Shown here: positions 34,318 through 64,000 of the stretch, one piece after another
Position numbering within the stretch: the first letter of the stretch is position 1
Layout: the number at the start of each line of letters is the position of its first letter
Origin: Allosphingosinicella sp.
GTDB lineage: Bacteria; Pseudomonadota; Alphaproteobacteria; Sphingomonadales; Sphingomonadaceae
Direction: 5' to 3'
Assembly (NCBI GenBank): GCA_036491055.1
Contig: DASXCT010000016.1
Coordinates: 982 to 64,981 of the forward strand
Length of the DNA: 64,000 nucleotides
Translations under genes and position numbers: made by a program
The notes under the pieces: generated by a model
Seen by the model: the letters and a program-made list of their open reading frames with translations, nothing else
The model's database searches: none
What the model was told of the DNA's origin: nothing

Positions 34318-35463
34318 CTAGGCCGGCTCGGCGGAGATTCCCGCTTCCGGAACAGGCTCGGCCGGCGTTGGCGCAGGCACATTTTCGATAAAGAGGGCTG
34401 CGAGCGGATCATTGATGTAATAATTGCTTCGGCCCGCCCGGTGCTTGGACAACAGCCCCCCGGCGGTGAGCTGGTCAAGGTAGCGGGCGGCCGTCTGCCG
34501 GCTGATGTCCAGTTCCCGCTGCAGGAATTCGATGCGGGTGTAAGGGAATCGGAAGAGGGTGTTGAGCAGATCCTGGGAATAGATCTTCTTGTGGTTCGTG
34601 CGCAGATTGTTCTTATAGTCCCGCATCAGCTCCTTGATGTCGCCGATGAGGCGCAGCGTGTCGATGGAGGTGCTGGTGACGGCCTGGAGCATGTACAGGA
34701 TCCAGCTCTCCCAGTCTCCGGTCTCCCGCACCGCCTGAAGCAGCCGGTAATATTCGCCCTTGTTCGCGGTGATGTAGCGGCTGAGATAGAGGATCGGAAT
34801 CTCTAGCAGCTTCTCGCGCACGAGATAGAGGACGTTGATGATGCGTCCGATCCGACCGTTGCCGTCGGGGAACGGGTGAATGCTCTCGAACTGGTGGTGA
34901 ATGACGGCCATCTTGACGAGGGGATCGAGGTCGCAAAGCGCATCGTCGTTGATGAACCGCTCCAATTTCCCCATCAGGTCCTGGATCGCGTTGGCGTCCT
35001 GCGGCGGGATATAGACGAGCTTGCCGCTGGCTTCGTTCTTCAAGGCGGTTCCCGGCGTCGCGCGATATCCGCCCGTCGTCCGCTTCAGCACCTGGAACAT
35101 CCGGGTGATGGTGTTGTTGGTGAGCAGTCCCTCCTGAGCGCACAAGGCGTCGTGGCCGACCTGGAGCGCGTCCCGGTAAAGCGCCACTTCCTTGGCGGCC
35201 GGCGAGGCGGGGTTTTCGGGGAACAGGCTGACCTGGAACACCTCATCCTGCGTCGTGACGATATTCTCGATCTCCGAGCTCGCCTTCGCTTCCTGGAGGG
35301 CGAGCGTGTCGATGAGGATGCCTTGGTTGGGGATGCCGCCGGCACGGCCCTTCAACTCGGCGAGGTGACGGTGCGCGCGCGCGGCGGCGCGCAGCACGGA
35401 AGGGTTTTCGAGCGCCGCGTTCGGCGGGAGCTCAGGGATCGTATAAGTCGGCTTGAGAGTCAT
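34318..35463 (-). CDS. Fic family protein with N-terminal Fic_N region and C-terminal HTH
   Basis: EAKASSEIEN inhibitory-type motif; HQFESIHPFPDGNGRIGR; SRQTAARYL. Confidence 0.92.
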   Translation of the reverse strand: MTLKPTYTIPELPPNAALENPSVLRAAARAHRHLAELKGRAGGIPNQGILIDTLALQEAKASSEIENIVTTQDEVFQVSLFPENPASPAAKEVALYRDALQVGHDALCAQEGLLTNNTITRMFQVLKRTTGGYRATPGTALKNEASGKLVYIPPQDANAIQDLMGKLERFINDDALCDLDPLVKMAVIHHQFESIHPFPDGNGRIGRIINVLYLVREKLLEIPILYLSRYITANKGEYYRLLQAVRETGDWESWILYMLQAVTSTSIDTLRLIGDIKELMRDYKNNLRTNHKKIYSQDLLNTLFRFPYTRIEFLQRELDISRQTAARYLDQLTAGGLLSKHRAGRSNYYINDPLAALFIENVPAPTPAEPVPEAGISAEPA

Positions 35464-35500: not shown

Positions 35501-35660
35501 ATCATGCATGACGTGTTACAAAAAGTGAAAAATGTTAACACGTCTGGCCGCATATGCTATGCAGGGTGACGCATCTCGAGACCGACTCTCGCAAGCCGTC
35601 ATGCTCGCCCTCGTCGAAAGCTTGCGCTACGCTCCGCTAGCACACAGGGGGAATAGACGC

Positions 35661-36602
35661 ATGAAATCATGGATTTTCGCGCTCGCGGCGGTCGCCGCGT
35701 GGGGATCGGCCGCTTCGGCGCGGACTGGGGCGGCGCCGGCGGTCGCCTATCGGCCGCTGGGGGTGGACGATCTCGGCATCCAGTTCGTCGACGACGGCTC
35801 GGTCCGGAAGGACGGGACGAGCCGGGATTTTTCGATGCTGGTGGTGTTCGCGCACCCGATAGCCGACGATAACGGGGCCGAATTTCTCTATGCGACGCTC
35901 CGGTCGCGGGTCGATTGCGCCGCCGGGACCGAGCAGGACCTCTTCGCAATCTTCCACGCGAAGGACGGCACCGACCAAAGGCCGACCGTCCACCATCCGG
36001 CCGCTTCCCTCCAGCCCGGATCGGTGATGGCGGACGCCGCGGATTATGTGTGCACGGGGAGGCGCAAGGCCGCCGCCGCGGAGGGGCGGGCGATGAGCGA
36101 GGCGGAGGCGGTGCGCGTCGCGACGGGCGCCTTCGCGGTTTCGGCCCCGGCGGCCGGCGCGTCCCAACCCGTCTATCGGTTGCTGGGCGTGACCGATGAG
36201 GATGCCGAGTTTCTCGACCAGGGCTCGATCGCGAAGGACGGAGCGCTCCGGGACTACCGGCTGCTGGTGGTGTGGGCGACGCCCAAGCTCGGGAGCGACG
36301 GCAGGACCGAGCATCCCTTTGCCAAATACCAGGCCCGGATCGACTGCGCCGCGTGGATGTCGAGCCTGCTTTCCATCACCATCTACAGCAGGAGCGGCCC
36401 GGAAAAGCCGATCATCCTTGGCCGGGGCCCGGATCGTCTTGAGCCGGGCTCGGTCGCAGAGACCGGCGCCGACTATCTCTGCAAGGGTAAATTGGCTGCG
36501 CAGATCGCGGGCGCGCCCCTGATCACGGTGGAGGAAGCGGTCCGCTCCGCGACCATGCTTTTCGCGGGACGCAAGGACCGGCGCGGCGCGGGAGGACAGT
36601 GA
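35661..36602 (+). CDS. Exported protein with two tandem about 130-aa surface-adhesin-E-like domains
   Basis: Signal peptide; each domain YR.LG..F.D.GS..DG..R..R.DCAA..PGSV..ADY.C.G. Confidence 0.75.
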   Translation: MKSWIFALAAVAAWGSAASARTGAAPAVAYRPLGVDDLGIQFVDDGSVRKDGTSRDFSMLVVFAHPIADDNGAEFLYATLRSRVDCAAGTEQDLFAIFHAKDGTDQRPTVHHPAASLQPGSVMADAADYVCTGRRKAAAAEGRAMSEAEAVRVATGAFAVSAPAAGASQPVYRLLGVTDEDAEFLDQGSIAKDGALRDYRLLVVWATPKLGSDGRTEHPFAKYQARIDCAAWMSSLLSITIYSRSGPEKPIILGRGPDRLEPGSVAETGADYLCKGKLAAQIAGAPLITVEEAVRSATMLFAGRKDRRGAGGQ

Positions 36603-36705: not shown

Positions 36706-38064
36706 ATGAAAGCGTGGTTTTTGGCGTTCATGGTGTTGGGGGCTTCGGCGGCTGCTGCTGCGGCGCAGTCGAGCGCCTTGCCGGAGGCGCGCTATCGGTT
36801 GATGGGCTACAGGGGCGATGAGGTTCAGTTCCTCGACGAGGGATCCGTCGACACGGACGGGACCAGGCGGGACTTTTCCTCCCTGACGGTGGACTCGGCG
36901 CCCCGGGCCGGCCCGCACGGCCGGCCGGAAGACAGCTATGGCGTGATTCGAAGCCGGATCGATTGCGCCGCGTGGACGGTGCAGCCGCTCTCCGCGCGGG
37001 TCCATTGGCAGAGCGGCCTGGGCGAACGCGTGGCCGCCAATCGAGCGCCCGTGGCCATCCCGGTGAATTCGTTCGCGGAGCTTTTCGCCGATTTTCTCTG
37101 CAAGGGCCGGACGGATTGGCTGATCAGGCGGTCGCATCTGGTCCGCGAAGCGGATGCGGTTCGCTCCGCGCGGCGCTTTTTCTCCGTCCCGACGGCGACG
37201 GACGCGTCGGGAGATTCGCGCTACCGCCTGCTGGATCTCGAGGACGCCGACGCCCAGCTCATCGACGAAAAGTCCATCAAGGAAGACGGCCCGCGCCGGA
37301 AATTCTCGCTGCTGATCATTTGGCCTCAACCCCGGTCCGGGGGAGGGGAAAGCGAGCCCGCCTCTCTCCACGACGAAATCCCGATGCGGGTCGATTGCGC
37401 CGCATGGACGATGCAGACCCTCTCGGGGAGGCCGAATGCGGGAAGCGGCACCGGAACGCCGCTTGTTCATGCCATCCTGCCGGGCTCGGTCGCGGAGACG
37501 GCGGCCGATTATGTCTGCAAGGGCAAGCTGGACCCCGACATCTCGCCGGCGAACGCCGCGAACGAAGCGCAGGCGGTGCGCGGCGCGATGCGTTTCCTCG
37601 CCGTGACGGGTTGGGGAAGCGCGCCGCCGGATCCCGCCTACCGTCTCATCGCCGCGGACGGCGATGCGGCCAATTATCTCGACGAAAGCGCGATCGCGCG
37701 GGCCGGCGCGACCCGGGAATATTGGATTCTGGGGCTGCGGGCAAAGCCCGAACGCGACAGGTACGGCGCCGAACATCCCTATGCGAGGTACCAGCTCCGC
37801 ATCGATTGCGCCGCGTGGACTACGCAGGCGCTCAAGGTGATTCCCTATACGAAGCGCGGGCCGGACCAGCTTGTTTCGCTTGCCGCCGAGCCGCAGCGCA
37901 TCGACCCGGATTCGGCGACGGAGGCCACCGCCAATTTCCTGTGCAAGGGCGAACTCGATCCGGCGATCGCGGCGAGGCACCTGGTCTCGCAGGACGAAGC
38001 GGTGCGCGAGGCGCTGAGCAATTTCGTGGCGGCCGGCCGGCCGCGCGATGCGCGCGGGAGGTGA
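36706..38064 (+). CDS. Exported protein with three tandem surface-adhesin-E-like domains, paralog of the upstream gene
   Basis: Same repeat three times (RIDCAAW ... LCKG); similar signal peptide MKAWF vs MKSWI. Confidence 0.75.
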   Translation: MKAWFLAFMVLGASAAAAAAQSSALPEARYRLMGYRGDEVQFLDEGSVDTDGTRRDFSSLTVDSAPRAGPHGRPEDSYGVIRSRIDCAAWTVQPLSARVHWQSGLGERVAANRAPVAIPVNSFAELFADFLCKGRTDWLIRRSHLVREADAVRSARRFFSVPTATDASGDSRYRLLDLEDADAQLIDEKSIKEDGPRRKFSLLIIWPQPRSGGGESEPASLHDEIPMRVDCAAWTMQTLSGRPNAGSGTGTPLVHAILPGSVAETAADYVCKGKLDPDISPANAANEAQAVRGAMRFLAVTGWGSAPPDPAYRLIAADGDAANYLDESAIARAGATREYWILGLRAKPERDRYGAEHPYARYQLRIDCAAWTTQALKVIPYTKRGPDQLVSLAAEPQRIDPDSATEATANFLCKGELDPAIAARHLVSQDEAVREALSNFVAAGRPRDARGR

Positions 38065-40827: not shown

Positions 40828-40852
40828 GGAGTCGCCGCGGGCGGGGCTCAGG

Positions 40853-40901
40853 CCCCCCTCCACCATGCTCCGCATGGTCCCCCTCCCCGTTCCGGGGAGG
40901 A
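40853..40901 (+). repeat. REP-like element family A (inside prophage)
   Basis: cccccctccaccatgctccgcatggtccccctccccgttccggggagga. Confidence 0.85.
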
Positions 40902-41363: not shown

Positions 41364-42632
41364 TTGCATGAGGTCGAGATTCCGGGCGCCTTTCGGGGGT
41401 TGTTCGAGGCGCATCGCTACAAGGCCTTTTACGGCGGGCGGGGATCGGCCAAGTCGCATAGCTTTGCGACGGCTTTGGTCATCCTGGCGGCCGCGCGGCC
41501 TTTGCGGATCGTTTGCGCGCGGGAGATCCAGAACAGCTTGCGCGATTCGGTCAAGCAGCTGATCGAGGACAAGATCGCGGCGCTCGGGCTCGACGCGCAT
41601 TTCGATTGCCAGAGCAAGGTGACCAGGGGCCGCAACGGCTCGCATTTTTCCTATATCGGCCTGTGGCGGAACCCGGACGCGATCAAGTCGATGGAGGGGG
41701 CCGATATCTTCTGGGGGGAGGAGGCTTCGGCTTTCTCCGAACGCTCGCTTCGGATCGTGCGGCCGACCATGCGCAAGCCGGGATCGGAATTGTGGTTCTC
41801 GTGGAACCCGGAGTTCGAGCACGATCCGGTCGACCGCTTCTTCCGCGGCGGGGCGCCGCCGCCCGACGCTTTGGTGCGCGAGGTGAGCTGGCGCGACAAT
41901 CCCTGGTTCGCCGGCACGCCGCTCCAGGCCGAGATGGACTATGATTATTCCGCCGATCCGGCGCGCGCCGCCCATGTCTGGGGCGGGTCCTATGTCAGCG
42001 CGGTCGACGGGGCTTATTATGCCGCGGCGCTCGGCGAGGCACGGGCGGCGGGGCGGATCGGCCAGGTCGCGCCCGATCCCCTGATGGCCAAGCGCGCCTT
42101 CTGGGACTTGGGGGTGAGCGATTCGACCTCGGTCTGGGTGGCGCAGTTCGTCGGGCGCGAGATCCGGGTCCTGGATTATTGCGAGGGGCAGGGGCAGCCG
42201 CTTTCTTATTATTGCGACTGGCTGCGGGCGCGCGGCCATGGGTCGGCGCTCTGCGTGCTTCCGCATGACGGGGCGCGGCGGGACAATGTGACCGCTCTGC
42301 GCTTCGAGGACCATCTGCGCGAGGCCGGCTTCGCGGTCGAGACCGTGCCCAACCAGGGCAAGGGCGCTGCGATGCGGCGGATCGAGGCGGCGCGGCGGCT
42401 GTTCCCGGCGATCTGGTTCCACGAGGAGACGTGTCGCGAAGGGCTGAAGGCTTTGGCGGCTTATGCCGAGAAGCGGGACGACAAGAGGAATGTGGGGCTG
42501 GGGCCGGACCATAATTGGGCCTCGCATGCGGCCGATGCCTTCGGGCTGATGTGCATCGCTTATGAGGCGCCGCGGGAGCGGCGGAAGGCGGTGGAGCGGG
42601 CGGATTTCGGGGCTGGGGGGTGGATGGGGTGA
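41364..42632 (+). CDS. terL: Terminase large subunit (PBSX-type)
   Basis: YGGRGSAKSH Walker A; IFWGEEA Walker B; FSWNP; WDLGVSDST and HNWASHAADAF nuclease motifs. Confidence 0.95.
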   Translation: MHEVEIPGAFRGLFEAHRYKAFYGGRGSAKSHSFATALVILAAARPLRIVCAREIQNSLRDSVKQLIEDKIAALGLDAHFDCQSKVTRGRNGSHFSYIGLWRNPDAIKSMEGADIFWGEEASAFSERSLRIVRPTMRKPGSELWFSWNPEFEHDPVDRFFRGGAPPPDALVREVSWRDNPWFAGTPLQAEMDYDYSADPARAAHVWGGSYVSAVDGAYYAAALGEARAAGRIGQVAPDPLMAKRAFWDLGVSDSTSVWVAQFVGREIRVLDYCEGQGQPLSYYCDWLRARGHGSALCVLPHDGARRDNVTALRFEDHLREAGFAVETVPNQGKGAAMRRIEAARRLFPAIWFHEETCREGLKALAAYAEKRDDKRNVGLGPDHNWASHAADAFGLMCIAYEAPRERRKAVERADFGAGGWMG

Positions 42633-42642
42633 CCTTCTTCAT

Positions 42643-42847
42643 TCTCCCTGCGATTTCGCGGGGAGGGGGACCATGCGAAGCATGGTGGAGGGGCCTTGGC
42701 ACGGCGCATGAAGGGGGCCCCTCCACCACCCTGCGGGTGGTCCCCCTCCCCTCAGAATCGAGGGGAGGATTTAAGGGCGCCCGCCTCCGCCACCCTGCGG
42801 GTGGTCCCCCTCCCCTCGGAATCGAGGGGAGGATTTAAGGGCGCCCC
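42643..42847. repeat. Cluster of three family A REP-like copies (one inverted, two tandem direct) between terL and portal
   Basis: 42643-42693 (-), 42718-42769 (+), 42785-42833 (+). Confidence 0.85.
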
Positions 42848-42872: not shown

Positions 42873-44948
42873 ATGGGTGAGATTGCTCCTGGCGACGGTT
42901 ACGACGCCGATGCCGACGACGCGGCCGAAACGCCCGACAAGATCCTTGCCGCGGCGCGGGAGGATTATCGGCGGGCGCGGGAATATTGGCAGGACAATCA
43001 GCGCGAGGCGCAGGCGGACCTGGAATTCGCGCGGCTGGGACGGCAATGGCCGGCAGCGGTCGAGGAGCAGCGGCGGCGCGAGCATCGGCCGTGCCTCACC
43101 TTCAACAAGATGCCCTCCTTCATCCGCCAGGTCGTCAACGATAGCCGGCAGAACAAGCCTTCGATCAAGGTCCACCCGCAGGATTCGGGCGCCGATCCGC
43201 AGGTCGCGACCATCTATGACGGGCTGATCCGCAACATCGAGGCGACCTCCGACGCCGACGTCGCCTACGACACCGCGATCGAGCATGCGGTGGGGCAGGG
43301 CTTCGGCTTCTGGCGGGTCAACACCGCTTATGCCTGCGACGACGCTTTCGACCAGGATATCGTGATCGAGCGGATCGCCAATCCGTTCACGGTGTACGGC
43401 GATCCGCGATCGACGGCGGCGGATTCGTCGGACTGGAACATCGCCTTCGTCATCACGACGATGCCGAAGGACGAGTTCGAGCGGCAGTACCCGGACGCCG
43501 AATGCACGAGCTGGGAGTTCGATTTCGCCGACTGCCCGGACTGGCTCGACGGCGACGACGTCGTCCTCGCCGAATATTGGACGCGGGAGAAGGCGGCGCA
43601 CGACATCGTCGCGCTTTCGGACGGATCGATCATCGCGCTCGAGGAATTGGAGGCCGATCCGCGCCAGTTCGAGGGCGTCGAGGTCGTCGGGCGGCCGCGT
43701 ACGGTCGAGACGTACAAGGTGACGCAGCGGCTGATGACCGGCGCCGAGATACTGAAGACGGTCGACTGGGCGGGCAAATATATCCCGATCGTCCCCGTTT
43801 ATGGCGACGAGGTGATCGACGAGCATGGCAAGCGCCATTTCCGGTCTTTGATCCGCGACGCCAAGTCGGCGCAGGAGATGCTCAATTACTGGCGGACGAC
43901 GACGACCGAGCTTGCCGCGCTCGCGCCCAAGGCGCCCTGGGTGGGCGAGCAGGGGGCGTTCGACGTCGATCCCAATTGGGACGTCGCGAACAGCGCGAGC
44001 CTTTCGAAGCTCGAATATCGCAAGGGCTCGCCGATGCCGCAGCGCCAGCCTTTCGCCGGCGTGCCGGCGGGGGCGCTGCAGGAGGCGCTGAACGCCAATG
44101 ACGACATGAAGGCGATCATCGGCATTTACGATGCGTCCTTGGGCGCGCGCAGCAACGAGACGTCGGGCAAGGCGATCATGGCGCGGCAGCGGGAAGGGGA
44201 CGTTTCGACCTTCCACTTCATCGACAATCTGTCGCGGGCGATCCGCCATTCGGGGCGGATCCTCCTCGACCTCATTCCCAAGGTCTATTCGACCCAGCGG
44301 ATGATCCGCGTGCTCGGCGACGATCTGGCGCCGGCCAATGCCCAGGTCGCGCCGACCGGGCAGGCGGTGACTCCGGTGGTCGGGCCGCCGCGGGCCGATC
44401 CCGCCAATCCGATGCAGCTGATGCCGCCGGCGGTGGTCGGGCATGTCTACGATCTCGCCGCGGGCAAATACGACCTCACCGTGTCGGCGGGGCCGAGCTA
44501 CACGTCGCGGCGCGAGGAGGCGAACGACCTCATGATGCAGATGATGCAGGCGGCGCCGCAGGTCATTCCTTTGATCGCCGACATCTGGGTCGAGCAGCAG
44601 GACATGCCGCTTGCCGACCAGCTCGCCGATCGGCTGCGGCTGATGTTGCCGCCCCAGGCGCAGCAGGGGCCGGGCGGGGCGGGGGGCGGTGTGCCGCCGC
44701 AGGTGGCGGCGCAGATGAGCCAGCAGCAGCAGGTCATCCAGCAGGGCGCCGCGAAGCTCCAGCAGCAGGCGCAGGAGAACCAGGCGATGCAATTGCGGAT
44801 CGCCCTGCTCGAGACCGAGCTCGCCAACCGCCAGAACGAGCAGGGCCTCAAGAGCCAGGAGCTGCAGGTCAAGAGCTACGACGCCGAGACGCGGCGGATC
44901 GAGGCGATGCGGCCGCAGGTGGTCGGGATGGGGGCGCAGGCGGGGTAG
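42873..44948 (+). CDS. Portal protein (P22 gp1-like)
   Basis: RPCLTFNKMPSFIRQVVNDSRQN, YIPIVPVYG, SLIRDAKSAQ, NETSGKAIMARQREG, GKYDLTVSAGPSYTSRREEA; Gln-rich C-terminal barrel. Confidence 0.93.
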   Translation: MGEIAPGDGYDADADDAAETPDKILAAAREDYRRAREYWQDNQREAQADLEFARLGRQWPAAVEEQRRREHRPCLTFNKMPSFIRQVVNDSRQNKPSIKVHPQDSGADPQVATIYDGLIRNIEATSDADVAYDTAIEHAVGQGFGFWRVNTAYACDDAFDQDIVIERIANPFTVYGDPRSTAADSSDWNIAFVITTMPKDEFERQYPDAECTSWEFDFADCPDWLDGDDVVLAEYWTREKAAHDIVALSDGSIIALEELEADPRQFEGVEVVGRPRTVETYKVTQRLMTGAEILKTVDWAGKYIPIVPVYGDEVIDEHGKRHFRSLIRDAKSAQEMLNYWRTTTTELAALAPKAPWVGEQGAFDVDPNWDVANSASLSKLEYRKGSPMPQRQPFAGVPAGALQEALNANDDMKAIIGIYDASLGARSNETSGKAIMARQREGDVSTFHFIDNLSRAIRHSGRILLDLIPKVYSTQRMIRVLGDDLAPANAQVAPTGQAVTPVVGPPRADPANPMQLMPPAVVGHVYDLAAGKYDLTVSAGPSYTSRREEANDLMMQMMQAAPQVIPLIADIWVEQQDMPLADQLADRLRLMLPPQAQQGPGGAGGGVPPQVAAQMSQQQQVIQQGAAKLQQQAQENQAMQLRIALLETELANRQNEQGLKSQELQVKSYDAETRRIEAMRPQVVGMGAQAG

Positions 44949-44992
44949 GGGTGGCGACCGGTGTCGCCGCATGTTGTAGCGTCTAAGAAGCG

Positions 44993-45211
44993 CTAGCGGT
45001 GGCCCCGCCCGAAGCTGGGCTGTGAATGCCTCACGCCGCTAGTGACAACGTCATAGCCGCATGGGTGGCAAACCAGGGTATTGGCCCGTCCCACCGGGAG
45101 GCTTTCATGCTTCATGATCGATTTCTTGCCGTGCTGATAGCAATGGGGACATATCCAATGGGGTGGCTCCGACGGCTCCACGCCTTCCTTCAAACGGTAG
45201 GCGACAGAGCC
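44993..45211 (-). pseudogene. 3' remnant of a zinc-ribbon hypothetical protein
   Basis: GSVAYRLK..EPPHWICPHCY..KKSIM..LVCHPC; recognisable homology stops at about 45212. Confidence 0.5.
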
Positions 45212-45213
45212 TT

Positions 45214-45435
45214 GCCTGGGATGCGCTAAACTCCGATCAGGATGCCGGGTCCATGGCCAGGACGTTCGCCCTGAATTATGAGGGGATGGCCAACAAAACA
45301 GACGATCCAAAGCAGCGGGCAGCGCTCGCGGACGTGCTCAGCACAATTCCCCTCGATCCTACCAAGTCCCCGCGGCGGCCCACTAGCCCGCCACCTGAAA
45401 TCCAGGCCTATCTCCGGCGACGAGCGGGCCGCTAA
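45214..45435 (+). pseudogene. 3' remnant paralogous to the C-terminus of the lysozyme-tipped ejection protein (61410..63578)
   Basis: AWDALNSDQDAGSMARTFALNYEGMANKTDDPKQRAAL vs AWAALHSNQSAGQMAAKVAMDYEGMANKTGDPEKRAAI; 35/58 identical over the last block. Confidence 0.85.
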
Positions 45436-45462
45436 ACCGACAGTCGGAGAGGGCCCAAAGAC

Positions 45463-45774
45463 TCAGTTGCGGTTCTTCCGGCATGGCAGCCAATAGAACA
45501 TCGACCTGGGTGCTTCGAATTCATGCGAGCCCCAGCACCAGCCCATCCGCTCCACGCGTTCGATTAGTCGGTCACGGCGCGCGCAGGTGCGTTTCTTGAC
45601 CGCAATGTCGTAGGTTCCGCTGCAGATCGGGTCCAGGACGGTAATCCGGCGGATGAGGCTTTCAAGCGGCTGCGTGCGCGGCGCTTTGTATTCCGAGATG
45701 CAGCATGCGCTCGCCGACGTCGTGATCAGTGTTGCCGCCAGGAACGCTGCCGCGATCGTTGTCGAAGGGCGCAT
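45463..45774 (-). CDS. Small exported Cys-rich protein, paralog of 63564..63914
   Basis: Signal peptide; ACCISE, TYD.AV.KRTCARRDRL, GWCWGS, YWLPCR shared. Confidence 0.8.
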   Translation of the reverse strand: MRPSTTIAAAFLAATLITTSASACCISEYKAPRTQPLESLIRRITVLDPICSGTYDIAVKKRTCARRDRLIERVERMGWCWGSHEFEAPRSMFYWLPCRKNRN

Positions 45775-45815
45775 GGACCGTCTCCCAGCCCATTCATACC
45801 GGAACGCGATTTTCG

Positions 45816-45830
45816 GAACAAGTGAAGAAC
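45816..45830. promoter_or_regulatory. Alphaproteobacterial LexA (SOS) box consensus GAAC-N7-GAAC
   Basis: GAACaagtgaaGAAC in the intergenic gap between divergent genes. Confidence 0.6.
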
Positions 45831-46058
45831 AGAGTGCTTACGCCAAATCGCTCATCCTAACCCAGGGTCGGATCCGGGCGAAGGGTCGTTCACCGCTTTC
45901 ATCCATCCTTCGATACGCCGTTTCGACAAGCTCAACAGCTACTCAGGATGAGCGGGCAGGGGGGCACGGCGAGATCATGAGTTTGCCGCCAACCCCTGCG
46001 GGGGAGCGGCTTTACCTGGCCCGTCGTGAGACGCGCCTTTTCCTGAAAGAGGAGCCCC

Positions 46059-46925
46059 ATGGAGAACGAGACCGCGACCAACCCAAGCGGCGGCGAGGAT
46101 ACGGATTTTTCCACCCTCGCCGGCGATGCGGGAGTCGAGACCGAGACGCTCGAACCGACCCTCGATGATTACGGCAATCCGGTCGAACCGGACGACAGCG
46201 AGGAAGTCGAGCAGGATGGGCAGAAATTCCGCGTGCCCAAGGCGCTCAAGGATTCGTTCCTGAGGCAGGCGGACTATACCCGCAAGACGCAGGAAGTGGC
46301 GGACATGCGCCGGGCCGTCGAGGCCGAGCGGCAGGTCCTCCACCAGGCCAGCGACGCGGAGATCGGGACGCTCGCCCAGGTGCGGGCGCTCGACCAGCAG
46401 CTTGGCTATTATAACCGCATCGACTGGGACCGCTGGGAGCAGCAGGATCCGTTCGAGGCCCAGAAGGGCTGGCGGCAGTTCCAGCAGCTCCAGCAGGCGC
46501 GGCAGCAGACCGCGGGACATTTTTCGCAGCTCGTACAGCACCGGAATTTCGTTGCGCAGCAGGACACTGCCAGGCGCATCGAGGAAGGCCGGGCAGTGCT
46601 CGCCCGCGACATCAAGGGATGGGGCCCCGAGCTGGCATCGGGCCTGCTCGAGACGGGCGCGAGGCAATACGGCCTGCACAGAGCGGAGATCGAGGAGGCT
46701 TTCACCGATCCCCGCCTGGTCAAGGTCCTGCACGACGCGCACCAATATCGCCTCATCCATGGCAAGCAGCAGCAGGCGCAGCGTCATCTCGCCGCGCAGC
46801 AGGCCGAACCAGCAGCCCGCCCCGCCGCCTCGCGCGCGCCCGGCCAGGGACTGGACGATCGGCTGAGCGCGGAGGAATGGGCGCGGCGCCGCGACGAGCA
46901 GGTGCGCAAGCGCCGGGCTCGATAA
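46059..46925 (+). CDS. Capsid scaffolding protein
   Basis: Acidic N-terminus, FLRQADYTRKTQEVA motif, helical Gln-rich body; lies between portal and coat. Confidence 0.85.
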   Translation: MENETATNPSGGEDTDFSTLAGDAGVETETLEPTLDDYGNPVEPDDSEEVEQDGQKFRVPKALKDSFLRQADYTRKTQEVADMRRAVEAERQVLHQASDAEIGTLAQVRALDQQLGYYNRIDWDRWEQQDPFEAQKGWRQFQQLQQARQQTAGHFSQLVQHRNFVAQQDTARRIEEGRAVLARDIKGWGPELASGLLETGARQYGLHRAEIEEAFTDPRLVKVLHDAHQYRLIHGKQQQAQRHLAAQQAEPAARPAASRAPGQGLDDRLSAEEWARRRDEQVRKRRAR

Positions 46926-47173: not shown

Positions 47174-48370
47174 ATGGCAAACAGCATTCTCACGCCCACC
47201 GCAGTGACCCGCGAGGCGCTGCGCATCCTCCACCAGAAGCTCAATTTCGTGGGCAATATCGTCCGCGAATATGATGACAGCTTCGCCAAGAAGGGCGCCC
47301 GGATCGGCGACACGCTCAAGATCCGGCTGCCCAACCAATATGTCGTGCGCACCGGCGCGGTGCTGGCGACGCAGGATACGAACGAGACCAGCGTGTCGCT
47401 GACCGTCGGCACCCAGAAGGGCGTCGACCTCAACTTCACCTCGGTCGACCTCACCTTGTCGCTGGACGATTTCTCCGACCGCATCCTGCAGCCGGCGATG
47501 ACCGTCCTCGCCGCGAACATCGAGGCCGACGCGCTTTCGATGTACAAGGACGTCGCCAACAGCGTGTGGAACGGCGGATCGGCGGCGACGCTCGCCAAGG
47601 TGCTGCAGGGGCGCAAGCTCCTCCAGGATCATTTGACGCCGCTCAACGAGCGCACGGCCTTGCTCAACACGCAGGACAATGTCGACATCGTCACCGACGT
47701 CAAAGGGCTGTTCAACGCGCAGGACACGATCTCGAAGCAATATAAGGAAGGCTATGTCGGCCGGACCGCGGGCTTCGATTTCGCGGAGAATACGTTGATC
47801 CCGGCCCATGCCCGCGGCGCCGGCAACACCGCCTATACGACCAACACCACCGGCCTTGCGACCGACGGCACCGAATATGCCGCCATCACCGTCGCGACCG
47901 GCACCGGCACGCTGAAGAAGGGCGACGTCATCACCATCGCCGGCATCGACCGCGCGCATCCGGAATCGAAGGCGGACCAGGGCGCTTTGCGCCAGTTCGT
48001 CGTCGCCGCCGATTATGCGGGCGGGGCCGGTTCGGTTTCGATCTCGCCGAGCATCTTCCTCGGCGGGCCGAAGCAGAATTGCGTCGCCGCGACGACCTCG
48101 GCGACGGCGGCGGTGGCAATCGCCGGCACCGCCTCGACCGCGGTCGGCACCTCGCTCATGTTCCAGAAGGAAGCGTTCGCCTTCGCGACCGCCGACCTGG
48201 TCATGCCGCAGGGCGTGGACTTCGCGTCGCGCCAGGTGCTCGACGGGGTGTCGATGCGGATCGTCCGCGCATACGACATCAACAACGACAAGTTCCCGTG
48301 CCGGATCGACGTCCTCTACGGGTACAAGACGCTGCGGGCCTCTCTGGCCTGCCGGCTGCACAACAACTGA
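47174..48370 (+). CDS. Major capsid protein (P22 coat protein gp5 family)
   Basis: MANSILTP, KGARIGDTLKIRLP, FAFATADL, FPCRIDVLYGYKTLR. Confidence 0.93.
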   Translation: MANSILTPTAVTREALRILHQKLNFVGNIVREYDDSFAKKGARIGDTLKIRLPNQYVVRTGAVLATQDTNETSVSLTVGTQKGVDLNFTSVDLTLSLDDFSDRILQPAMTVLAANIEADALSMYKDVANSVWNGGSAATLAKVLQGRKLLQDHLTPLNERTALLNTQDNVDIVTDVKGLFNAQDTISKQYKEGYVGRTAGFDFAENTLIPAHARGAGNTAYTTNTTGLATDGTEYAAITVATGTGTLKKGDVITIAGIDRAHPESKADQGALRQFVVAADYAGGAGSVSISPSIFLGGPKQNCVAATTSATAAVAIAGTASTAVGTSLMFQKEAFAFATADLVMPQGVDFASRQVLDGVSMRIVRAYDINNDKFPCRIDVLYGYKTLRASLACRLHNN

Positions 48371-57565: not shown

Positions 57566-60500
57566 ATGGGCCTTTCTTCTTCTTCGTCCAACTCGACGAG
57601 CAACCAGCAGACCAATCAGACCGCCACGACCACCCCGGTCGCGCCGTCCTGGCTGACCCAGGGGCTGCAAAATTATGTCGGGTCGATCGGCAGCTTCGCC
57701 GATTCCGATCCGAACAGCTTCGTCGCCGGCGCCTCGCCGCTCGAGCAGCAGGCGTATAACAATGCCGACGAGCTTGGCGGGCTCAACAACAATTTCAGCA
57801 CCGCGTCCAAGATCGCGCTCGGCGTCGCCAACGCGCCGGCGAGCACGGTCCCGTCCGCCTCCGGCTACGGCGCCGCGCAGGGGGGGGTGTCGACCTATAA
57901 TCCGGCGACCTTGTCCAACCCGTTCGCGGCGGGCGCCAGCGGCTATAATGCCGCCCAGACGACCGGCACCTCTTATTCGGCGCCGACCTTCACGCCGGTC
58001 AATGTCGGGGCGGGGCTGGATCTCAATGGATTTTCGCCATCCTCATCGTCCTCGTCCGGATCCTCGCCGTTCACGATCACGCCTTTCTCCTCGACCTCGC
58101 CGCAATCGATCACCGCCGGCGGTTCCATTCCGCAGCCGCTGACCGCCAATCCGAACGCCGCGCAGGGCGGCTCCTTCACCCTCTCGCCCTTCTCGGCGAC
58201 GTCGCCACAGGCGGATTTCAACGCGGCTTCGTCCTCGGCCATTCCCTATGCTTTGACCTCGGCCTCGGGCTACAATTCAGCCAATGCCGCGGCGACCGGC
58301 TATGCCGCGCCCAATCTCGGCGCGGCGAGCCAGGCGGCCGGCGCCGGCTACAATGCCGCCACCGCCAATTCCTCGGGCTATGCGGTGCCGTCGCTCGCCA
58401 ATGCGGCGCTTGCCACCGGCACCGGCTTCAACGCCGCGCTCGCCAATGCATCGGGCTATGCCGCGCCCAATCTCGGCGCGGCGAGCCAGGCGACCGGCGC
58501 CGGCTACAATGCCGCCAATGCCGCCGCCGCCGGCTATGCGGTGCCGTCGCTCGGCGCCGCGAGCCAGGCGACCGGCGCCGGCTACAATGCCGCCAACGCG
58601 GCCGCGAACGGCTATTCGGTGGCGTCGCTCGGCAATGCCGCGCTCGCTTCGGGCCAGGGCTATAATGCCGCGCAGGCGGGGCCGGTGACGATCGCGCCGG
58701 CCGCCAATGCGGCCGCGTCCAACGCCCAGGCGGCGAGCCTGCTCACCAACCTCAATGGCTACATGAACCCCTATCTCGGCCAGGTCGTCAACGCGAGCAT
58801 GGCCGATTTCGACCAGAATGCCGCCGTGCAGCAGGCCCAGCTCAAGGCGCAGGGCGCGGCCGCCGGCGCCTTCGGAGGATCGCGCTTCGGAGTCGCCCAG
58901 GCGAGCCTGGACGACGATCTCGCCCGCGCCCGCGCCACCACCGAATCCGGCCTCCTCTCCAACGCCTTCAACACTGCGGCCGGCCTTTCCCAGTCGGACG
59001 CCGCCAACCGCCAGCAGGCGAGCCTGTTCAACGCCCAGAACCAGACCGGCGTATCGCAGGCCAATGCCGCCGCCGCCAACCAGCGCGCGCTCAGCCAGGC
59101 GCAGCTCAGCGCCCAGCTCGGCCTCGCCAACCAGTCCGCGACCAACCAGGCGTCGGAGTTCGGTGCCAATGCGCAGAACGCGGCGAGCCTCGCCAACCAG
59201 TCGGCGAACAACCAGTTCGCGCTCACCCGCGCCGGCATGCAGAATGACGAATCCCAGTTCGCCGCCTCCGCGCAGAACCAGGCCTCGCTCGCCAATGCCG
59301 CCGCCGCCAACCAGGCCGGCCAGTTCGGCGCCAATGCGCAGAATGCGGCGAGCCTCGCCAACCAGTCGGCGAACAACCAGTTCGCCTTGACCCGTGCGGG
59401 CATGCAGAATGACGAGGCGCAATTCGCCGCCGGCGCGCAGAACCAGGCCTCGCTCGCCAATGCCGCCGCCGCCAACCAGGCCGGCCAGTTCGGCGCCTTG
59501 GCGAGGAACAATGCCAGCCTCGCCAACCAATCGGCCAACAACCAGTTCGCCCTGACCCGCGCCCAGCAGCAGGCCGACGCCTCGCAATTCGGGGCGGCGG
59601 CGCAGAACCAGGCGGCGCTCGCCAACGCCTCGGCGCGCAACCAGGCGAGCCTGTTCAACGCCCAGGCGACCAATGCCGCCGGCCTTTCCAACCAGAGCGC
59701 GCTCAACCAGTTCGCCCTGACCCGCACCGGCATGCAGAACGACCAGGCGCAATTCGCGGCTTCGGCGGCGAACCAGGCCGCGCTCGCCAATGCGGCGTCG
59801 CGTAACCAGGCAGCGCAGTTCGGCGCGACGGCCCAGAATAATGCCAGCCTCGCCAACCAGTCCGCCAACAACCAGTTCGCGCTGACCCGGGCCCAGCAGC
59901 AGGCCGACGCCTCGCAATTCGGGGCGTCGGCGGCGAACCAGGCGGCGCTCGCCAATGCGGCGGCGGCCAACCAGGCGGGCCAGTTCGGCGCGGCGGCGCG
60001 CAACACCGCCAGCCTCGCCAACCAGGGCGCCGTCAACCAGATCGGGCTCGCCCAGGCGCAGATGCAGAACGACGCCGCCAAATATGGGGCGGATACGGCG
60101 AACCAGATGGCGCTCGCCAATGCCGCCGCGCAGAACCAGGCGGCGCAGTTCGGCGCGACGGCGCTGAACAATGCCGGCCTCGCCAACCAGAGCGCCGGCA
60201 ACCAGTTCGCGCTCGCCCAGGCGCAGATGCAGAACGACGCCTCGCAGTACAATGCGACCGCCAACAATGCGTCGATGCAGGCCTATCTCGCCGCGCTCAA
60301 CCAGTCGGCGCAGTTCAACGCGGGCGCGCAGAACCAGGCGAGCCTGTTCAACGCCCAGCAGAATGAGGCCGGGCTCGCCCGCCAGCTCCAGGCGGCCAAT
60401 GCGCTCAGCCAATATGGCAGCGATTACGGCACCAACACCCGCGCGGATCTGGGCGCGATGTCGCAGCTCGGCGCCCAGCAGCAGCAGATCGAGCAGGCTT

Positions 60501-60700
60501 ATGCCCTGGCGCCGCTCGCCCAGCTCCAGGCGGTCGGCCAATTGTTCGGCGCGACGCCCTACCAGGCGCTGATCGGGCAGACGATCAACACCAACGGCAC
60601 CAGCAGCGGGACGAGCTCGACTACCACGACACCGAGCCTGTTCTCGATGCTCATGCAGGCGGGCCAGAACGCGGCTAATGCCTATGCGGCGGGGGCTTGA
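57566..60700 (+). CDS. DNA ejection (transfer) protein with 26-aa and 55-aa tandem repeats
   Basis: MGLSSSSS N-terminus, YMNPYLGQVV and GAFGGSRFGV motifs typical of podoviral ejection proteins; Asn/Gln/Ala repeats. Confidence 0.8.
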   Translation: MGLSSSSSNSTSNQQTNQTATTTPVAPSWLTQGLQNYVGSIGSFADSDPNSFVAGASPLEQQAYNNADELGGLNNNFSTASKIALGVANAPASTVPSASGYGAAQGGVSTYNPATLSNPFAAGASGYNAAQTTGTSYSAPTFTPVNVGAGLDLNGFSPSSSSSSGSSPFTITPFSSTSPQSITAGGSIPQPLTANPNAAQGGSFTLSPFSATSPQADFNAASSSAIPYALTSASGYNSANAAATGYAAPNLGAASQAAGAGYNAATANSSGYAVPSLANAALATGTGFNAALANASGYAAPNLGAASQATGAGYNAANAAAAGYAVPSLGAASQATGAGYNAANAAANGYSVASLGNAALASGQGYNAAQAGPVTIAPAANAAASNAQAASLLTNLNGYMNPYLGQVVNASMADFDQNAAVQQAQLKAQGAAAGAFGGSRFGVAQASLDDDLARARATTESGLLSNAFNTAAGLSQSDAANRQQASLFNAQNQTGVSQANAAAANQRALSQAQLSAQLGLANQSATNQASEFGANAQNAASLANQSANNQFALTRAGMQNDESQFAASAQNQASLANAAAANQAGQFGANAQNAASLANQSANNQFALTRAGMQNDEAQFAAGAQNQASLANAAAANQAGQFGALARNNASLANQSANNQFALTRAQQQADASQFGAAAQNQAALANASARNQASLFNAQATNAAGLSNQSALNQFALTRTGMQNDQAQFAASAANQAALANAASRNQAAQFGATAQNNASLANQSANNQFALTRAQQQADASQFGASAANQAALANAAAANQAGQFGAAARNTASLANQGAVNQIGLAQAQMQNDAAKYGADTANQMALANAAAQNQAAQFGATALNNAGLANQSAGNQFALAQAQMQNDASQYNATANNASMQAYLAALNQSAQFNAGAQNQASLFNAQQNEAGLARQLQAANALSQYGSDYGTNTRADLGAMSQLGAQQQQIEQAYALAPLAQLQAVGQLFGATPYQALIGQTINTNGTSSGTSSTTTTPSLFSMLMQAGQNAANAYAAGA
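58268..58657 (+). repeat. Five 78-bp (26-aa) coding tandem repeats
   Basis: GYNAANAAAAGYAVPSLGAASQATGA and variants. Confidence 0.9.
59159..60313 (+). repeat. Seven 165-bp (55-aa, 5 x 11-aa) coding tandem repeats
   Basis: FGANAQNAASL ANQSANNQFAL TRAGMQNDESQ FAASAQNQASL ANAAAANQAGQ; register holds exactly from ttc 59159 to ttc 60314. Confidence 0.92.
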
Positions 60701-61409: not shown

Positions 61410-63578
61410 ATGGCCTATCAGGACGGCGATTCCAGGACCTATGGCGGCGTCACCTATCTGCGCCAGGACGGCCTCTGGTATCCGCAGCCCGATCCCGTGC
61501 TCGCGGCCGCCCAAGGCGGCGATGGCGGCGCGCCCGGCGATGGCAGCCAGGGCAACGCGCCCGATGCGTCGGCGCAGGCCGATCCCGACCAGCTCACCGG
61601 TCAGATCGCCCAGGTCAAGGACCAGTTCGTCAACGCGACCGATCCCGGCCAGAAGGTCAACGCGCTGTGGCAACTCGGCTCACTGATCATGGCGGCGAGC
61701 CAGCAGCCGCAGCAGGGCGGGGGAAGCGACGGCAGCGGCGGTTCAACCGGCAATCCGCCACAGCCGGCCGCGCTTTTCCAGCCGGGGCAGAACCAGCAGA
61801 ATCCGCCGCCCTTCATTGCCGGGCTGTCCGGCGCGCCCGACGACCCGGCCGGCGCGCTCCAGCAGCTCGGCGCGCCGCAGGGATCGGATGACGGCGGCAA
61901 CGGCACTGCGCAGCCGCCGCTGCCCCCGCCGCTCCTCGGCCAAGGTTCCGACAATGACGGCAACGACGGATCGGGCATTCCCCTCCTACCGTCCGATCAG
62001 CAGGGTCCGCCGCCGTTCATAGCGGGGCTTCCGGGCGCGCCCGGCGATGTGGCCAGCGCCCTGCAGCAGCTCACCACCCAGCAGGGCGCGACGGCTCCGG
62101 GTCTCGGCGGCGGCAACGGTCCGCAGCCACCCGCCTCCTTGTTCGCTGCCGGCGGGCCAGGCGGCACGAGCGGCGGAGCGCAGTCCGGCGGTCTGTTCGG
62201 CGCGCCAAGCCAGTCCGCCGGGCCGCCGCTGCCGCCGGACCAGCAGAACCCGCCGCCCTTCGTCGCGGGACTTCCCGGCGCACCCGGCGACGTAGCCAGC
62301 ATCCTCCAGCAGCTCGGTACGCCGCAAGGGGCAGGGGCTTCCGGCGACGGGCCGGACGCGCCGCAGCCGCCGGGCTCGTTGCCCGTCACCAATGCACCCG
62401 GCACCGGGAGCGACGATCAGCAGCAGCCCGGCGGCTTGCTTGGCATGCCGGGCCAGCCCGTCGTACCGCAGGCGCCCGCGCCGGGAGGGCCGGGCCCCCA
62501 GGGAAGGCCGCCTTTCATCCTGGCCTCCGCGCAGCAGCCCTTCCAGCCGAATGGCTTGCCGCCCGGTGGCGCTTTTCCAGGGCAGGGTGCCCGCGGTTCC
62601 CAACCCCCTTTTGGCGGCGCACCTGCCGGATTCCGTCTGGCTTCGCTGGATTCGCCGTCGGACGGACAGGCGGTCCTGCGGACCTACGGCTCTCCATTGG
62701 ATCCGGTTCTTGGGCCGCCGGCCAGCATCGCCCGCGCGCCGATCAAGGGTGCGCCGGCAGCAACTGCGACGCGGCAACCGACAGCCGCGCCAGGAGCGGC
62801 CACCCCCCAGCCGGCACAGGACCCGTTGCATGCCGAGTATAATTTTCAAGCCAACACCAACCTGGCGGTGGGGAGCAGTAAACTCACTCCAGATCAGAAA
62901 GCCGACCGCATCTATCAGATTGCGAAGCAACGCGGCCGCCCACTCGATCCGCACATGCGGCCGTGGCTCAAGGGCCACGCAAACGCGCCGATGATCGGGA
63001 ACATGCACATCGGGGAAGTCATCTCGCTCGCCCAGCGGGGCACCAGATTACGCAACCGGCTGATGCAGTTCGGATTCACTCCCGCCGCCGCGGCAGCGAT
63101 GGCGGCCAACGCGATGGTGGAAAGCTATGGCTATTATCGGTCTCCACAGCTGAGTGGCGGACCCGGCTATGGCCTCTGGCAATGGTCGCCTTATCGGCGG
63201 GGCTTATACGAAACGCTGAAGAAAAAGCAGAACAAAACGCTAAAGCAAAATCAGGACGTAAGCTTCTCAGCTGCTAATGAGGATGACCAGATCCGGTTCA
63301 TGATCTGGGAAATGCAGAATCAGCACCCCTACCATGATGCGTGGGCGGCGCTGCACTCCAATCAGAGTGCGGGGCAGATGGCGGCCAAGGTCGCAATGGA
63401 TTACGAAGGAATGGCGAACAAGACGGGAGATCCCGAAAAACGGGCCGCAATCGCGGATCTGCTGAGCAGCATTCCCGTCGATCCTCGGATGAATCTGGCC
63501 GCGCCGTCGAGTCCGCCACCGGAGGTCGACGCCTTTCTGCGGCGCAAGGCTGCCAGTGCGCGGTCAGTCGGGCGCTGA
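61410..63578 (+). CDS. Ejection protein with low-complexity N-terminus and C-terminal phage-tail-lysozyme-like domain
   Basis: FGFTPAAAAAMAANAMVES..GPGYGLWQW..RR..DQIRFMIWEM..DYEG matches the Phage_lysozyme2 pattern; three PPPF.AGL.GAP.D.A..LQQL repeats. Confidence 0.8.
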   Translation: MAYQDGDSRTYGGVTYLRQDGLWYPQPDPVLAAAQGGDGGAPGDGSQGNAPDASAQADPDQLTGQIAQVKDQFVNATDPGQKVNALWQLGSLIMAASQQPQQGGGSDGSGGSTGNPPQPAALFQPGQNQQNPPPFIAGLSGAPDDPAGALQQLGAPQGSDDGGNGTAQPPLPPPLLGQGSDNDGNDGSGIPLLPSDQQGPPPFIAGLPGAPGDVASALQQLTTQQGATAPGLGGGNGPQPPASLFAAGGPGGTSGGAQSGGLFGAPSQSAGPPLPPDQQNPPPFVAGLPGAPGDVASILQQLGTPQGAGASGDGPDAPQPPGSLPVTNAPGTGSDDQQQPGGLLGMPGQPVVPQAPAPGGPGPQGRPPFILASAQQPFQPNGLPPGGAFPGQGARGSQPPFGGAPAGFRLASLDSPSDGQAVLRTYGSPLDPVLGPPASIARAPIKGAPAATATRQPTAAPGAATPQPAQDPLHAEYNFQANTNLAVGSSKLTPDQKADRIYQIAKQRGRPLDPHMRPWLKGHANAPMIGNMHIGEVISLAQRGTRLRNRLMQFGFTPAAAAAMAANAMVESYGYYRSPQLSGGPGYGLWQWSPYRRGLYETLKKKQNKTLKQNQDVSFSAANEDDQIRFMIWEMQNQHPYHDAWAALHSNQSAGQMAAKVAMDYEGMANKTGDPEKRAAIADLLSSIPVDPRMNLAAPSSPPPEVDAFLRRKAASARSVGR

Positions 63579-63914: not shown

Positions 63915-64000
63915 AACCACTATCCCTTCTTGCCGGCCCGTCATCTGTCGCCGAACCGACGTACTTTATTATCAGGGACCTGCTTCTGGAACAATAGAAG

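Follow-up and report, generated by a model that had tools for sequence, protein, structure and literature searches.

The interval between the portal and scaffold genes of a P22-like prophage was analyzed in a 64,000-nucleotide stretch of DNA that originates from a soil metagenome (the window, meaning that whole stretch). The interval holds the 3′ ends of two truncated genes joined back to back and, beside them, one intact gene for a small, Cys-rich protein. The intact gene is an orphan paralog of a partner gene that lies convergent with the gene for the phage's own lysozyme-tipped protein near the end of the window. This anatomy is described with high confidence, and its components, together with the reference pair, are as follows.

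42873-44948: P22-type portal gene (Pfam E 5e-184)
44952-45981: variable cargo slot, from the portal stop (44948) to about 77 bp upstream of the scaffold start (46059), with edges placed where collinearity with the related locus L001 breaks
44993-45211, minus strand: remnant of a zinc-ribbon gene (CPHC...CHPC; phrog_1244 / D3112 orf25 family), 72 codons plus stop from its 3′ end, identified by a PHROG match
45212-45213: junction of the two truncated genes, 5′ end to 5′ end, where both homologies stop
45214-45435, plus strand: 3′ stump of a hydrolase gene (type B, Phage_lysozyme2-tipped), comprising its 73 final codons and the stop, from a BLASTP match to the 722-aa protein below
45463-45774, minus strand: intact orphan gene for a 103-aa predicted secreted protein with a four-Cys (4-Cys) domain, paralog of the 63.6-63.9 kb gene
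45781-45830, minus strand: orphan promoter, from an alignment of nine upstream regions
45781-45786, minus strand: Shine-Dalgarno sequence GGGAGA, with the ATG at 45774
45793-45798, minus strand: -10 element TATGAA, separated from the -35 by a 17-nt spacer
45816-45821, minus strand: -35 element TTGTTC
45816-45830, minus strand: SOS-box-like GTTCTTCACTTGTTC, a perfect GTTC-N7-GTTC that overlaps the -35
46059-46925: scaffold gene
61410-63578, plus strand: gene for the phage's own 722-aa protein with a C-terminal Phage_lysozyme2 domain (PF18013, E 1.5e-20, aa 548-682) and a type-A tail, the reference for the stump
63564-63914, minus strand: Cys-rich partner gene of type A, cognate to the 722-aa protein; translation from the ATG at 63914, a start placed by homolog starts and the conserved promoter, gives 116 aa
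63966-64000, minus strand: promoter of this tail-linked partner, -10 TAATAA at 63966-63971 and -35 TTGTTC at 63989-63994, in register with the other eight promoters

BLASTP was used to compare the open reading frame (ORF) at 45163-45435 (+) with the 722-aa protein. The alignment covers residues 644-714 without gaps (43/71 identical, 58/71 positive, E 1e-27), and DNA similarity to the 61410-63578 gene starts at about 45213. An earlier reading made from the DNA letters and ORF translations (the sequence-only reading) had assigned this segment as the last 73 or so codons of a lysozyme-tipped paralog; the assignment is confirmed, although the 35/58 identity it gave for the final block was an undercount. 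The stump is 75% identical to the tail of the intact lysozyme in the related locus L002. It starts at a position equivalent to about aa 644 of the 722-aa protein and therefore contains only part of the PF18013 domain (aa 548-682), and Pfam returned no match for the 90-aa ORF that holds it. The ANAMVES region with the catalytic Glu is absent, and the residues invariant in six intact enzymes all lie upstream; judged by this alignment, the stump retains no catalytic region. Its 73 codons contain no stop and no frameshift, and the ratio of nonsynonymous to synonymous substitution rates (dN/dS) is 0.15-0.29, equal to that of intact-gene pairs. Because the stump is free of any decay, the truncation looks recent.

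The minus-strand fragment at 44993-45211 matches phrog_1244 with E 1.3e-11 but covers only positions 94-146 of the 157-position profile. It aligns with residues ~100-164 of the 178-aa D3112 orf25 protein, and convincing homology stops at ~45211. Members of this family consist of a helical N-terminal part of ~95 residues and a C-terminal CxxC...CxxC ribbon. The fragment aligns to the C-terminal ribbon third only, so about 95 5′ codons are missing. These alignments agree with the sequence-only reading that the zinc-ribbon gene lacks its 5′ end and that the junction lies near 45212. A tblastn search with the piece detected 35 phages, including D3112, DMS3, JBD30, MP42 and E. coli phages, and in Pseudomonas phage D3112 orf25 is also an opposite-strand insert between packaging genes. 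A word search of 5.8 billion proteins returned no relative of the piece, PADLOC had no match, and a zinc-ribbon gene was found in the portal-scaffold slot of none of 101 related loci.

An assembly chimera, which the sequence-only reading had itself raised, would account for two cut genes that meet end to end; the source is a soil metagenome and a repeat lies nearby at 45906-45956. Independent assemblies were examined across the junction. A Logan contig from run X1 (4251 bp, even at 23.5x) spans 44300-46500 with no differences, a 160-bp contig from another soil sample (X2) matches 45124-45283 exactly, and the repeat is 700 bp away from the junction. A chimera is rejected by these data and retains only a negligible probability. 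The junction arose either by a single deletion that removed the divergent 5′ halves of the zinc-ribbon gene and a post-portal lysozyme gene, or by one illegitimate exchange between slot variants.

The orphan protein is 43/80 identical to the product of the 63.6-63.9 kb gene (E 6e-31). It is full length compared with all homologs and keeps the predicted signal peptide, every conserved Cys and the ARRDRL, GWCWGS and YWLPC motifs. Each of the two genes is convergent with its lysozyme ORF, with a 27-bp gap at the orphan pair and a 15-bp overlap at 63.57 kb, and the orphan is thus the intact paralog in the same geometry as at 63.4-63.9 kb that had been proposed. The ORF of the cognate partner extends over 63564-63944, and its real start is most likely 63914, not 63944. 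Cleavage of the orphan is predicted after SASA, and all close members have, as read by eye, an N-terminal hydrophobic segment and an A-x-A site before a CC motif. The mature product would then be encoded by 45463-45705, with CCISEYGAPR as its conserved N terminus. These features suggest export of the protein to the periplasm, where the four invariant Cys would form disulfides. The AlphaFold2 model of the orphan, with 94 relatives in the alignment, has a predicted local distance difference test score (pLDDT) >95 for residues 37-103 and consists of two long helices and a β-hairpin.

The family core is a ~65-residue 4-Cys domain with the pattern C...C..RD.L......GWCWG.......W..C. A profile search of 1.84 billion representative sequences detected this domain in 114 representatives, where it is single, repeated or fused, and the orphan matches the C terminus of phrog_25984. 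The close family is tiny, with three other proteins among 5.8 billion, and its dN/dS of 0.08-0.5 indicates purifying selection. Genome scans with a single Cys-rich protein found nothing, and alignment-based scans found one distant locus each. Pfam had no family for either Cys-rich protein of the window, even at E 5, and PADLOC had none. Foldseek comparison of the orphan model with the PDB gave a best E of 2, with only generic helical hairpins and no match to the T4 Spackle fold, and a profile search of PDB sequences gave nothing below E 0.09. Domains of the Ivy, MliC/PliC, PliI, PliG or LprI type were found in 0/94 relatives, apart from two fusions of the 4-Cys domain to LprI (the Pfam family 'Lysozyme inhibitor LprI').

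The 27-bp gap between the convergent stops contains a small palindrome, CCGACAGTCGG, at 45437-45447. The 63.57-kb pair has its CAGTCGG core as well, and the element may serve both pairs as a bidirectional terminator or a processing site.

The nine upstream regions of Cys-rich genes are otherwise ~40% identical, and the sole conserved blocks are GTTC-N7-GTTC, TTGTTC, the -10 and the Shine-Dalgarno sequence. The GTTC-N7-GTTC box comes first, with the -35 TTGTTC as its 3′ half; after 17 nt of spacer there follow a -10 of the form TAnnAn, the Shine-Dalgarno sequence GGAGAC and the ATG. A perfect box is found upstream of every close-family Cys-rich gene or operon and of the divergent L010 gene and the L136 operon; the box of the 63.99-kb copy is cut off by the window end. 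In the alphaproteobacterium Caulobacter, the operator bound by LexA has the form GTTCN7GTTC (PMC9578287 table 1; PMC4211646). For the window taken by itself, one box per 64 kb is within chance. Across the 101 loci, box density is 0.296/kb in the slot versus 0.089/kb outside, a ~3-fold enrichment. The conservation of the motif in register, together with this enrichment, leads to the prediction that the partner genes are LexA-repressed and induced by DNA damage as part of the SOS response. A generic σ70 scan of 44850-46150 detected no promoter; the conserved promoter scores 8/12 and the cut-off of the tool is 9/12.

Similar boxes occur at other slot genes. Perfect GTTC-N7-GTTC motifs with T-rich spacers are found on the plus strand, often 2-40 bp past the stop of the portal gene or ahead of other genes in the slot (L017, L034, L036, L037, L044, L091 and others), and many slot cargo genes beyond the Cys-rich ones may be LexA-controlled. 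At L136 4332-5309, an SOS-box promoter drives a gene for a 159-aa secreted protein of unknown family followed by the Cys-rich gene for P0007, and, across the lysozyme gene from these two, a 182-aa lipoprotein-like gene has a second box in front of it (7305-7319).

The portal-scaffold interval was compared in 101 related (pro)phage loci collected with a scaffold-protein profile, a check suggested by the sequence-only reading. The slot is variable, and sister phages carry full cassettes and arrays in it. The interval ranges from ~30 bp to >6 kb, a variability that identifies it as a cargo hot spot. In the closest relative, L001, the portal is 94% identical and the flanks are 91-94% identical. 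L001 is collinear with the window up to 44951 and again from 45982, and its slot contains an unrelated Fic-domain gene. The window cargo has a G+C content of 0.60-0.63 and a third-codon-position G+C content (GC3) of 0.68-0.76, compared with a GC3 of 0.83-0.88 for portal and scaffold. A crude GC3-based gene caller mis-strands such low-GC3 cargo and was used only to choose ORFs for Pfam. An L001-type Fic slot was sought in the same soil runs and gave flank matches only, low-depth runs being uninformative. Portal fragments are absent from 45775-46058, and the window slot contains neither a full-length post-portal hydrolase gene nor a portal 3′ duplicate.

The contigs of the Cys-rich family and two metagenome-assembled genome (MAG) loci carry the genes in the same portal-scaffold slot. 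In L002, L007 and L008, a lysozyme gene is convergent with a Cys-rich gene beside the scaffold gene, and L002 has a second Cys-rich gene in tandem, an orphan of the window's own tail type. The L010/L133 portal is 72% identical to the window portal. The slot of L133 contains, in order after the portal, a ~440-aa MVKPWEMDWS... gene, a convergent Cys-rich-domain gene, a VgrG3-like stump and an LprI gene, followed by the scaffold. The ~440-aa protein has a Pro-rich middle and a Phage_lysozyme2 C terminus, and the segment at L133 13917-14474 consists of a 31-codon 3′ stump of a VgrG3-like hydrolase gene and the intact LprI-family gene. A 7.4-kb array with three hydrolase/partner units occupies the slot of L011/L135. 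Its first half runs from the portal through an MVKPW-lysozyme2 gene with a Cys-rich gene and a portal 3′ fragment to an MVKPW gene with an unassigned domain and a gene for a 232-aa secreted protein. The second half consists of a lysozyme stump with a Cys-rich gene, another portal 3′ fragment and an MVKPW-VgrG3-like_C gene with LprI, ahead of the scaffold. The VgrG3-like_C head (PF21277, E 6e-46) and its LprI partner (PF07007, E 4.5e-15) are clearly assigned, and the stump at 16528-17010 is a lysozyme 3′ end of ~45 codons, with stops upstream, beside an intact Cys-rich gene. The duplicated portal 3′ fragments of L135 (13828-14128 and 17109-17218) would act as homology arms.

The post-portal proteins share the conserved N terminus MVKPWE[LM]DWS..., and the partner type changes with the head: lysozyme2 with 4-Cys, VgrG3-like with LprI, and domain X with the 232-aa secreted protein. 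By analogy, this combination of a conserved N terminus, swappable heads, small partners, homology arms and displaced units is a polymorphic effector/immunity layout, and window 45214-45774 is one displaced hydrolase/partner unit. The likeness to orphan-immunity arrays suggested in the sequence-only reading is backed by the array and stump of L135, the stump and LprI gene of L133 and the orphan of L002. That reading had also proposed that a fragment of a related element was captured and trimmed. The structure it described, two 5′-cut genes and an intact partner, stands. As for capture, sister phages have these cassettes natively in the slot, so the stump may instead have been inherited vertically.

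The convergent Phage_lysozyme2 / Cys-rich pair recurs in 10 contexts, down to ~30-40% identity, in line with the proposal that the pair is linked. P0007 (40% identical) is encoded in L136 convergent with, and 25 bp from, the gene for a 593-aa Phage_lysozyme2 protein at a prophage end, and P0014 is encoded in L137 convergent with a lysozyme2-like C terminus. A homolog search with the L002 lysozyme fragment found nothing. The lysozyme tails fall into type A (the window 722-aa protein, L007 and the L135 stump) and type B (the window stump, L002, L008 and L135 unit 1). The Cys-rich partners of the three type-A tails (63564-63914, L007 and the L135 orphan) have an NWAWY-type C-terminal extension in common. 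Orphans are reciprocal: the window has a type-A pair and a type-B orphan, and L002 has a type-B pair and a type-A-like orphan.

Decay of these units is one-sided. The hydrolase gene is truncated beside an intact partner in three cases (the window, L135 16528-17010 and L133 13917-14474), and the partner stands alone in L002_b and L003, where a lysozyme stump beside P0002 was looked for and none was found. An intact hydrolase gene with a broken partner was never seen among the loci compared. The window alone would also be compatible with a recent neutral scar, in which one deletion or recombination event cut both genes and the orphan and its promoter are intact for lack of time, useless in their present place. 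The undecayed stump, with no stop or frameshift in 73 codons and the dN/dS of intact genes, fits such a scar, as do the divergence of the orphan, the most divergent member with a somewhat raised dN/dS, and the fast turnover of the slot, whose flanks are 94% identical and whose content is wholly different in L001. However, the same outcome recurs independently in L135, where the cut hydrolase gene has upstream stops and the partner is intact, in L133 and in L002_b, and the reverse is never seen. The orphan also retains its promoter, SOS box, Shine-Dalgarno sequence, predicted signal peptide and all conserved residues. A neutral scar is credible but unlikely. Because the truncation is recent, intactness alone is no proof of selection, and the repeated one-sided pattern elsewhere is the better argument.

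The favored interpretation, with a probability of roughly 0.5, is that the interval holds a decayed cargo cassette in a variable slot, the prophage being P22-like and its host a sphingomonad-like soil bacterium. The proposal that the orphan protein is induced by the SOS response and inhibits, in the periplasm, the virion lysozyme of a related phage, in a manner comparable to Spackle, is likewise given even odds. The slot gene after the portal would combine the conserved N terminus with an exchangeable peptidoglycan-hydrolase head (Phage_lysozyme2, VgrG3-like or unassigned) and be followed by a small secreted partner. Recombination in the portal 3′ end and in the conserved N-terminal segment would bring in new units, and older ones would be displaced downstream and shortened from the 5′ side. 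What the window retains of such a unit would be a type-B lysozyme gene reduced to 73 codons at its 3′ end, together with the convergent partner, and a deletion or illegitimate recombination would have joined the stump to the 3′ third of the unrelated minus-strand zinc-ribbon gene. The 103-aa partner would go to the periplasm and fold as a disulfide-stabilized 4-Cys domain, and its LexA-repressed promoter would fire when DNA damage induces prophages. There the partner would bind and block the lysozyme heads in the virions of related phages, which would guard the induced cell against superinfection and lysis from without. Induction across a population would be the moment of exposure to many neighboring virions. 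The prophage would then hold two specificities: type A at 63.6-63.9 kb for its own lysozyme, and the orphan for type B. More tentatively, and with somewhat less than even confidence, P22-like alphaproteobacterial phages may be engaged in a phage-versus-phage effector/immunity arms race over cell-wall penetration, with swappable virion heads, cognate LexA-controlled inhibitors and orphan arrays that widen exclusion, the window cassette being one such orphan.

Several points weigh against this interpretation. Inhibition of the lysozyme is proposed from sequence and linkage, the location of the lysozyme-tipped proteins in the virion is assumed, and the predicted fold matches no known lysozyme inhibitor in the PDB fold search. 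The L133 and L135 arrays are known from MAG contigs. Some relatives of the domain are encoded away from any hydrolase: L005 is chromosomal, L004 is near terS and L138 is a third case. Co-variation of lysozyme tails and partners in a mirror-tree comparison was not significant (Mantel r 0.25, p 0.14), with only the type-A trio clustering in both matrices, and this result is consequently not used as support. Within the close family the orphan diverges most (46-62% identity), and its pairs have dN/dS of 0.22-0.65, above other pairs, with dS so near saturation that its terminal branch is not separable. The adjacent stump is undecayed and the event recent, and the orphan could be intact because little time has elapsed. 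Under LexA repression the gene would be largely silent in a quiet lysogen, a poorer fit to classical prophage exclusion.

A lysozyme-linked function other than inhibition of incoming phages would have the Cys-rich protein serve, for example, in SOS-induced lysis control, as a hydrolase helper or in an envelope change. The linkage and the SOS-type promoter suit any induction-time function. The LprI partner of L135 is on the same strand as its hydrolase gene, overlaps it and is probably co-transcribed late with it, and Pfam and PHROG scans recognized no endolysin, holin or spanin in the part of the prophage inside the window. A protein that serves its own enzyme alone gives no reason to keep or stack partners of other specificity, as in L002 and L135, and the hydrolases have no signal peptide and lie in structural or post-portal positions rather than in a lysis cassette. 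Such a role is regarded as distinctly unlikely.

In the periplasm, T4 Spackle (Sp) attaches to the tail lysozyme gp5 and keeps out superinfecting phage (PMC7677548). Like Spackle, the Cys-rich partner is a small, predicted periplasmic phage protein paired with the phage's own virion-type lysozyme and proposed to block that of incoming particles, and its predicted expression is tied to the lytic program rather than quiet lysogeny. Unlike Spackle, with which it has no similarity in sequence or fold by PDB fold and profile searches, the partner gene is linked to and convergent with the lysozyme gene, exists in more than one specificity type as well as in orphans and arrays, and is preceded by an operator of the LexA type. 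The family also resembles Ivy, MliC/PliC, PliI, PliG and LprI as small secreted or lipoprotein-like proteins proposed to neutralize a lysozyme-fold enzyme, and it has a link to LprI: LprI-family proteins partner the VgrG3-like head in the same slot, and an LprI-4-Cys fusion is present in 2/94 relatives. The 4-Cys domain itself matches none of these inhibitors in Pfam or the PDB.

Loci for contact-dependent inhibition (CDI; cdiA-CT/cdiI), Rhs proteins and type VI secretion systems (T6SS) contain orphan effector-CT/immunity modules and islets. For such modules, PMC5576092 cites Poole et al. 2011. As in these modules, a 5′-truncated effector end lies beside an intact small partner in the window, L135 and L133, and decay is asymmetric; displaced units are also stacked downstream of the active gene, and short duplicated homology arms (the portal 3′ end and the conserved N terminus) are present in L135. 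Unlike CDI/Rhs/T6SS, the modules lie in a phage structural-gene block, the effectors are cell-wall hydrolases and the partners are periplasmic. The window slot also differs from these loci in having no full-length active gene and no homology arms, both of which are present in L135. By analogy, the cassette resembles a CDI/Rhs/T6SS orphan module and Spackle in layout and role; in sequence or fold it is a member of neither.

Pore-forming colicin operons are under SOS (LexA) control, with the LexA boxes controlling the toxin gene and the immunity gene on the opposite strand. The cassette resembles these operons in its predicted LexA control and opposite-strand partner gene, and differs in that the box is on the partner gene rather than the toxin gene. 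This colicin logic, SOS control with an opposite-strand immunity gene, would suit a bacteriocin-like weapon, in which the hydrolase, virion-borne or released by lysis, kills competitors, the partner protects kin and the orphan broadens protection. Polymorphic heads, cognate small partners and displaced modules are hallmarks of polymorphic toxins, and one head is the T6SS VgrG3-like_C domain. The position agrees as well, since MuF polymorphic toxins of temperate phages are encoded by the gene after the portal (PMC5576092). Like MuF toxins, the slot proteins are encoded right after the portal and have a conserved N terminus, a variable C-terminal domain and a small downstream ORF. Unlike them, the L010 and L011 post-portal proteins contain no MuF (Phage_Mu_F) domain detectable by Pfam, which finds only C-terminal hydrolase domains, and the MuF paper (PMC5576092) makes no mention of peptidoglycan, lysozyme domains or orphan modules. 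A weapon is made improbable by the lack of an export signal and of a lysis or release gene linked to the hydrolase, and by an SOS box that lies at the partner gene, not the hydrolase gene. It largely overlaps the favored interpretation, and the main difference is who benefits.

Full-text literature searches found no description of phage-borne hydrolase/inhibitor arrays. If the partners are inhibitors, Spackle-type exclusion, known from one lytic coliphage, extends to a modular, polymorphic system of temperate phages in soil bacteria, a new small disulfide domain without a Pfam or PDB relative joins the repertoire of lysozyme inhibitors, and the dynamics of CDI/Rhs/T6SS orphan modules are at work within a block of phage head genes. 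LexA control, as predicted, would tie the SOS response to protection of induced cells from neighboring phages. Even with another function, members of this family, at present labeled 'hypothetical', can be annotated robustly by the lysozyme / 4-Cys linkage and the SOS-box promoter.

The G+C content of the window is 67%, and the P22-like prophage block extends from ~35-41 kb to the window end. Three further features lie in or around the packaging and head genes.

41364-42632: large terminase (TerL) gene
45906-45956: short interspersed repeat, REP/MITE-like (repetitive extragenic palindromic sequence / miniature inverted-repeat transposable element), ~50 bp, core TTCGACAAGCTCA, just inside the right edge of the slot
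47174-48370: P22-type coat gene

The repeat at 45906-45956 is single copy in the window and occurs, with differing flanks and at higher depth, in many unrelated contigs from four soil metagenomes; it could be a recombination hot spot. The block also encodes several large structural proteins, and the 722-aa lysozyme-tipped protein is the last in the structural block. Residues ~120-330 of this protein are Pro/Gly/Gln-rich with three copies of a QNPPPF(I/V)AGLPGAPGDVAS.LQQLG repeat. The gene before it (57566-60700) encodes a 1044-aa protein with long Asn/Gln/Ala-rich tandem repeats (...NQSANNQFALTRAQQQADASQFGA...). Neither protein received a Pfam or PHROG assignment apart from the lysozyme domain, and both are candidates for ejection proteins.

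Post-portal cargo in other loci includes an Acb3-like C-terminal domain (of an inhibitor family directed at the cyclic-oligonucleotide-based antiphage signaling system, CBASS), a GDSL esterase and α/β-hydrolase-like proteins (L116 5257-6471; L127 5038-6819; L017 2268-3185; L091 5496-6392). The position seems to host diverse enzymes or counter-defense cargo. A Fic_N / Fic / SoFic-like_C protein is encoded in the window at 34318-35463 (-), left of the phage block, and differs from the Fic protein encoded in the portal-scaffold slot of L001 at 2218-3420 (-), to which it is 28% identical. Four copies of a palindromic, GC-rich repeat (...GGGGAGGGGGACCATGC...GCATGGTGGAGGGG...) lie at 40852-40888, 42641-42695, 42715-42751 and 42779-42846, three of which fill the TerL-portal intergenic region in inverted and tandem arrangement. 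Just upstream of the packaging genes, the adjoining genes at 35532-36602 and 36706-38064 encode Surface-adhesin protein E (PF16747) domains.

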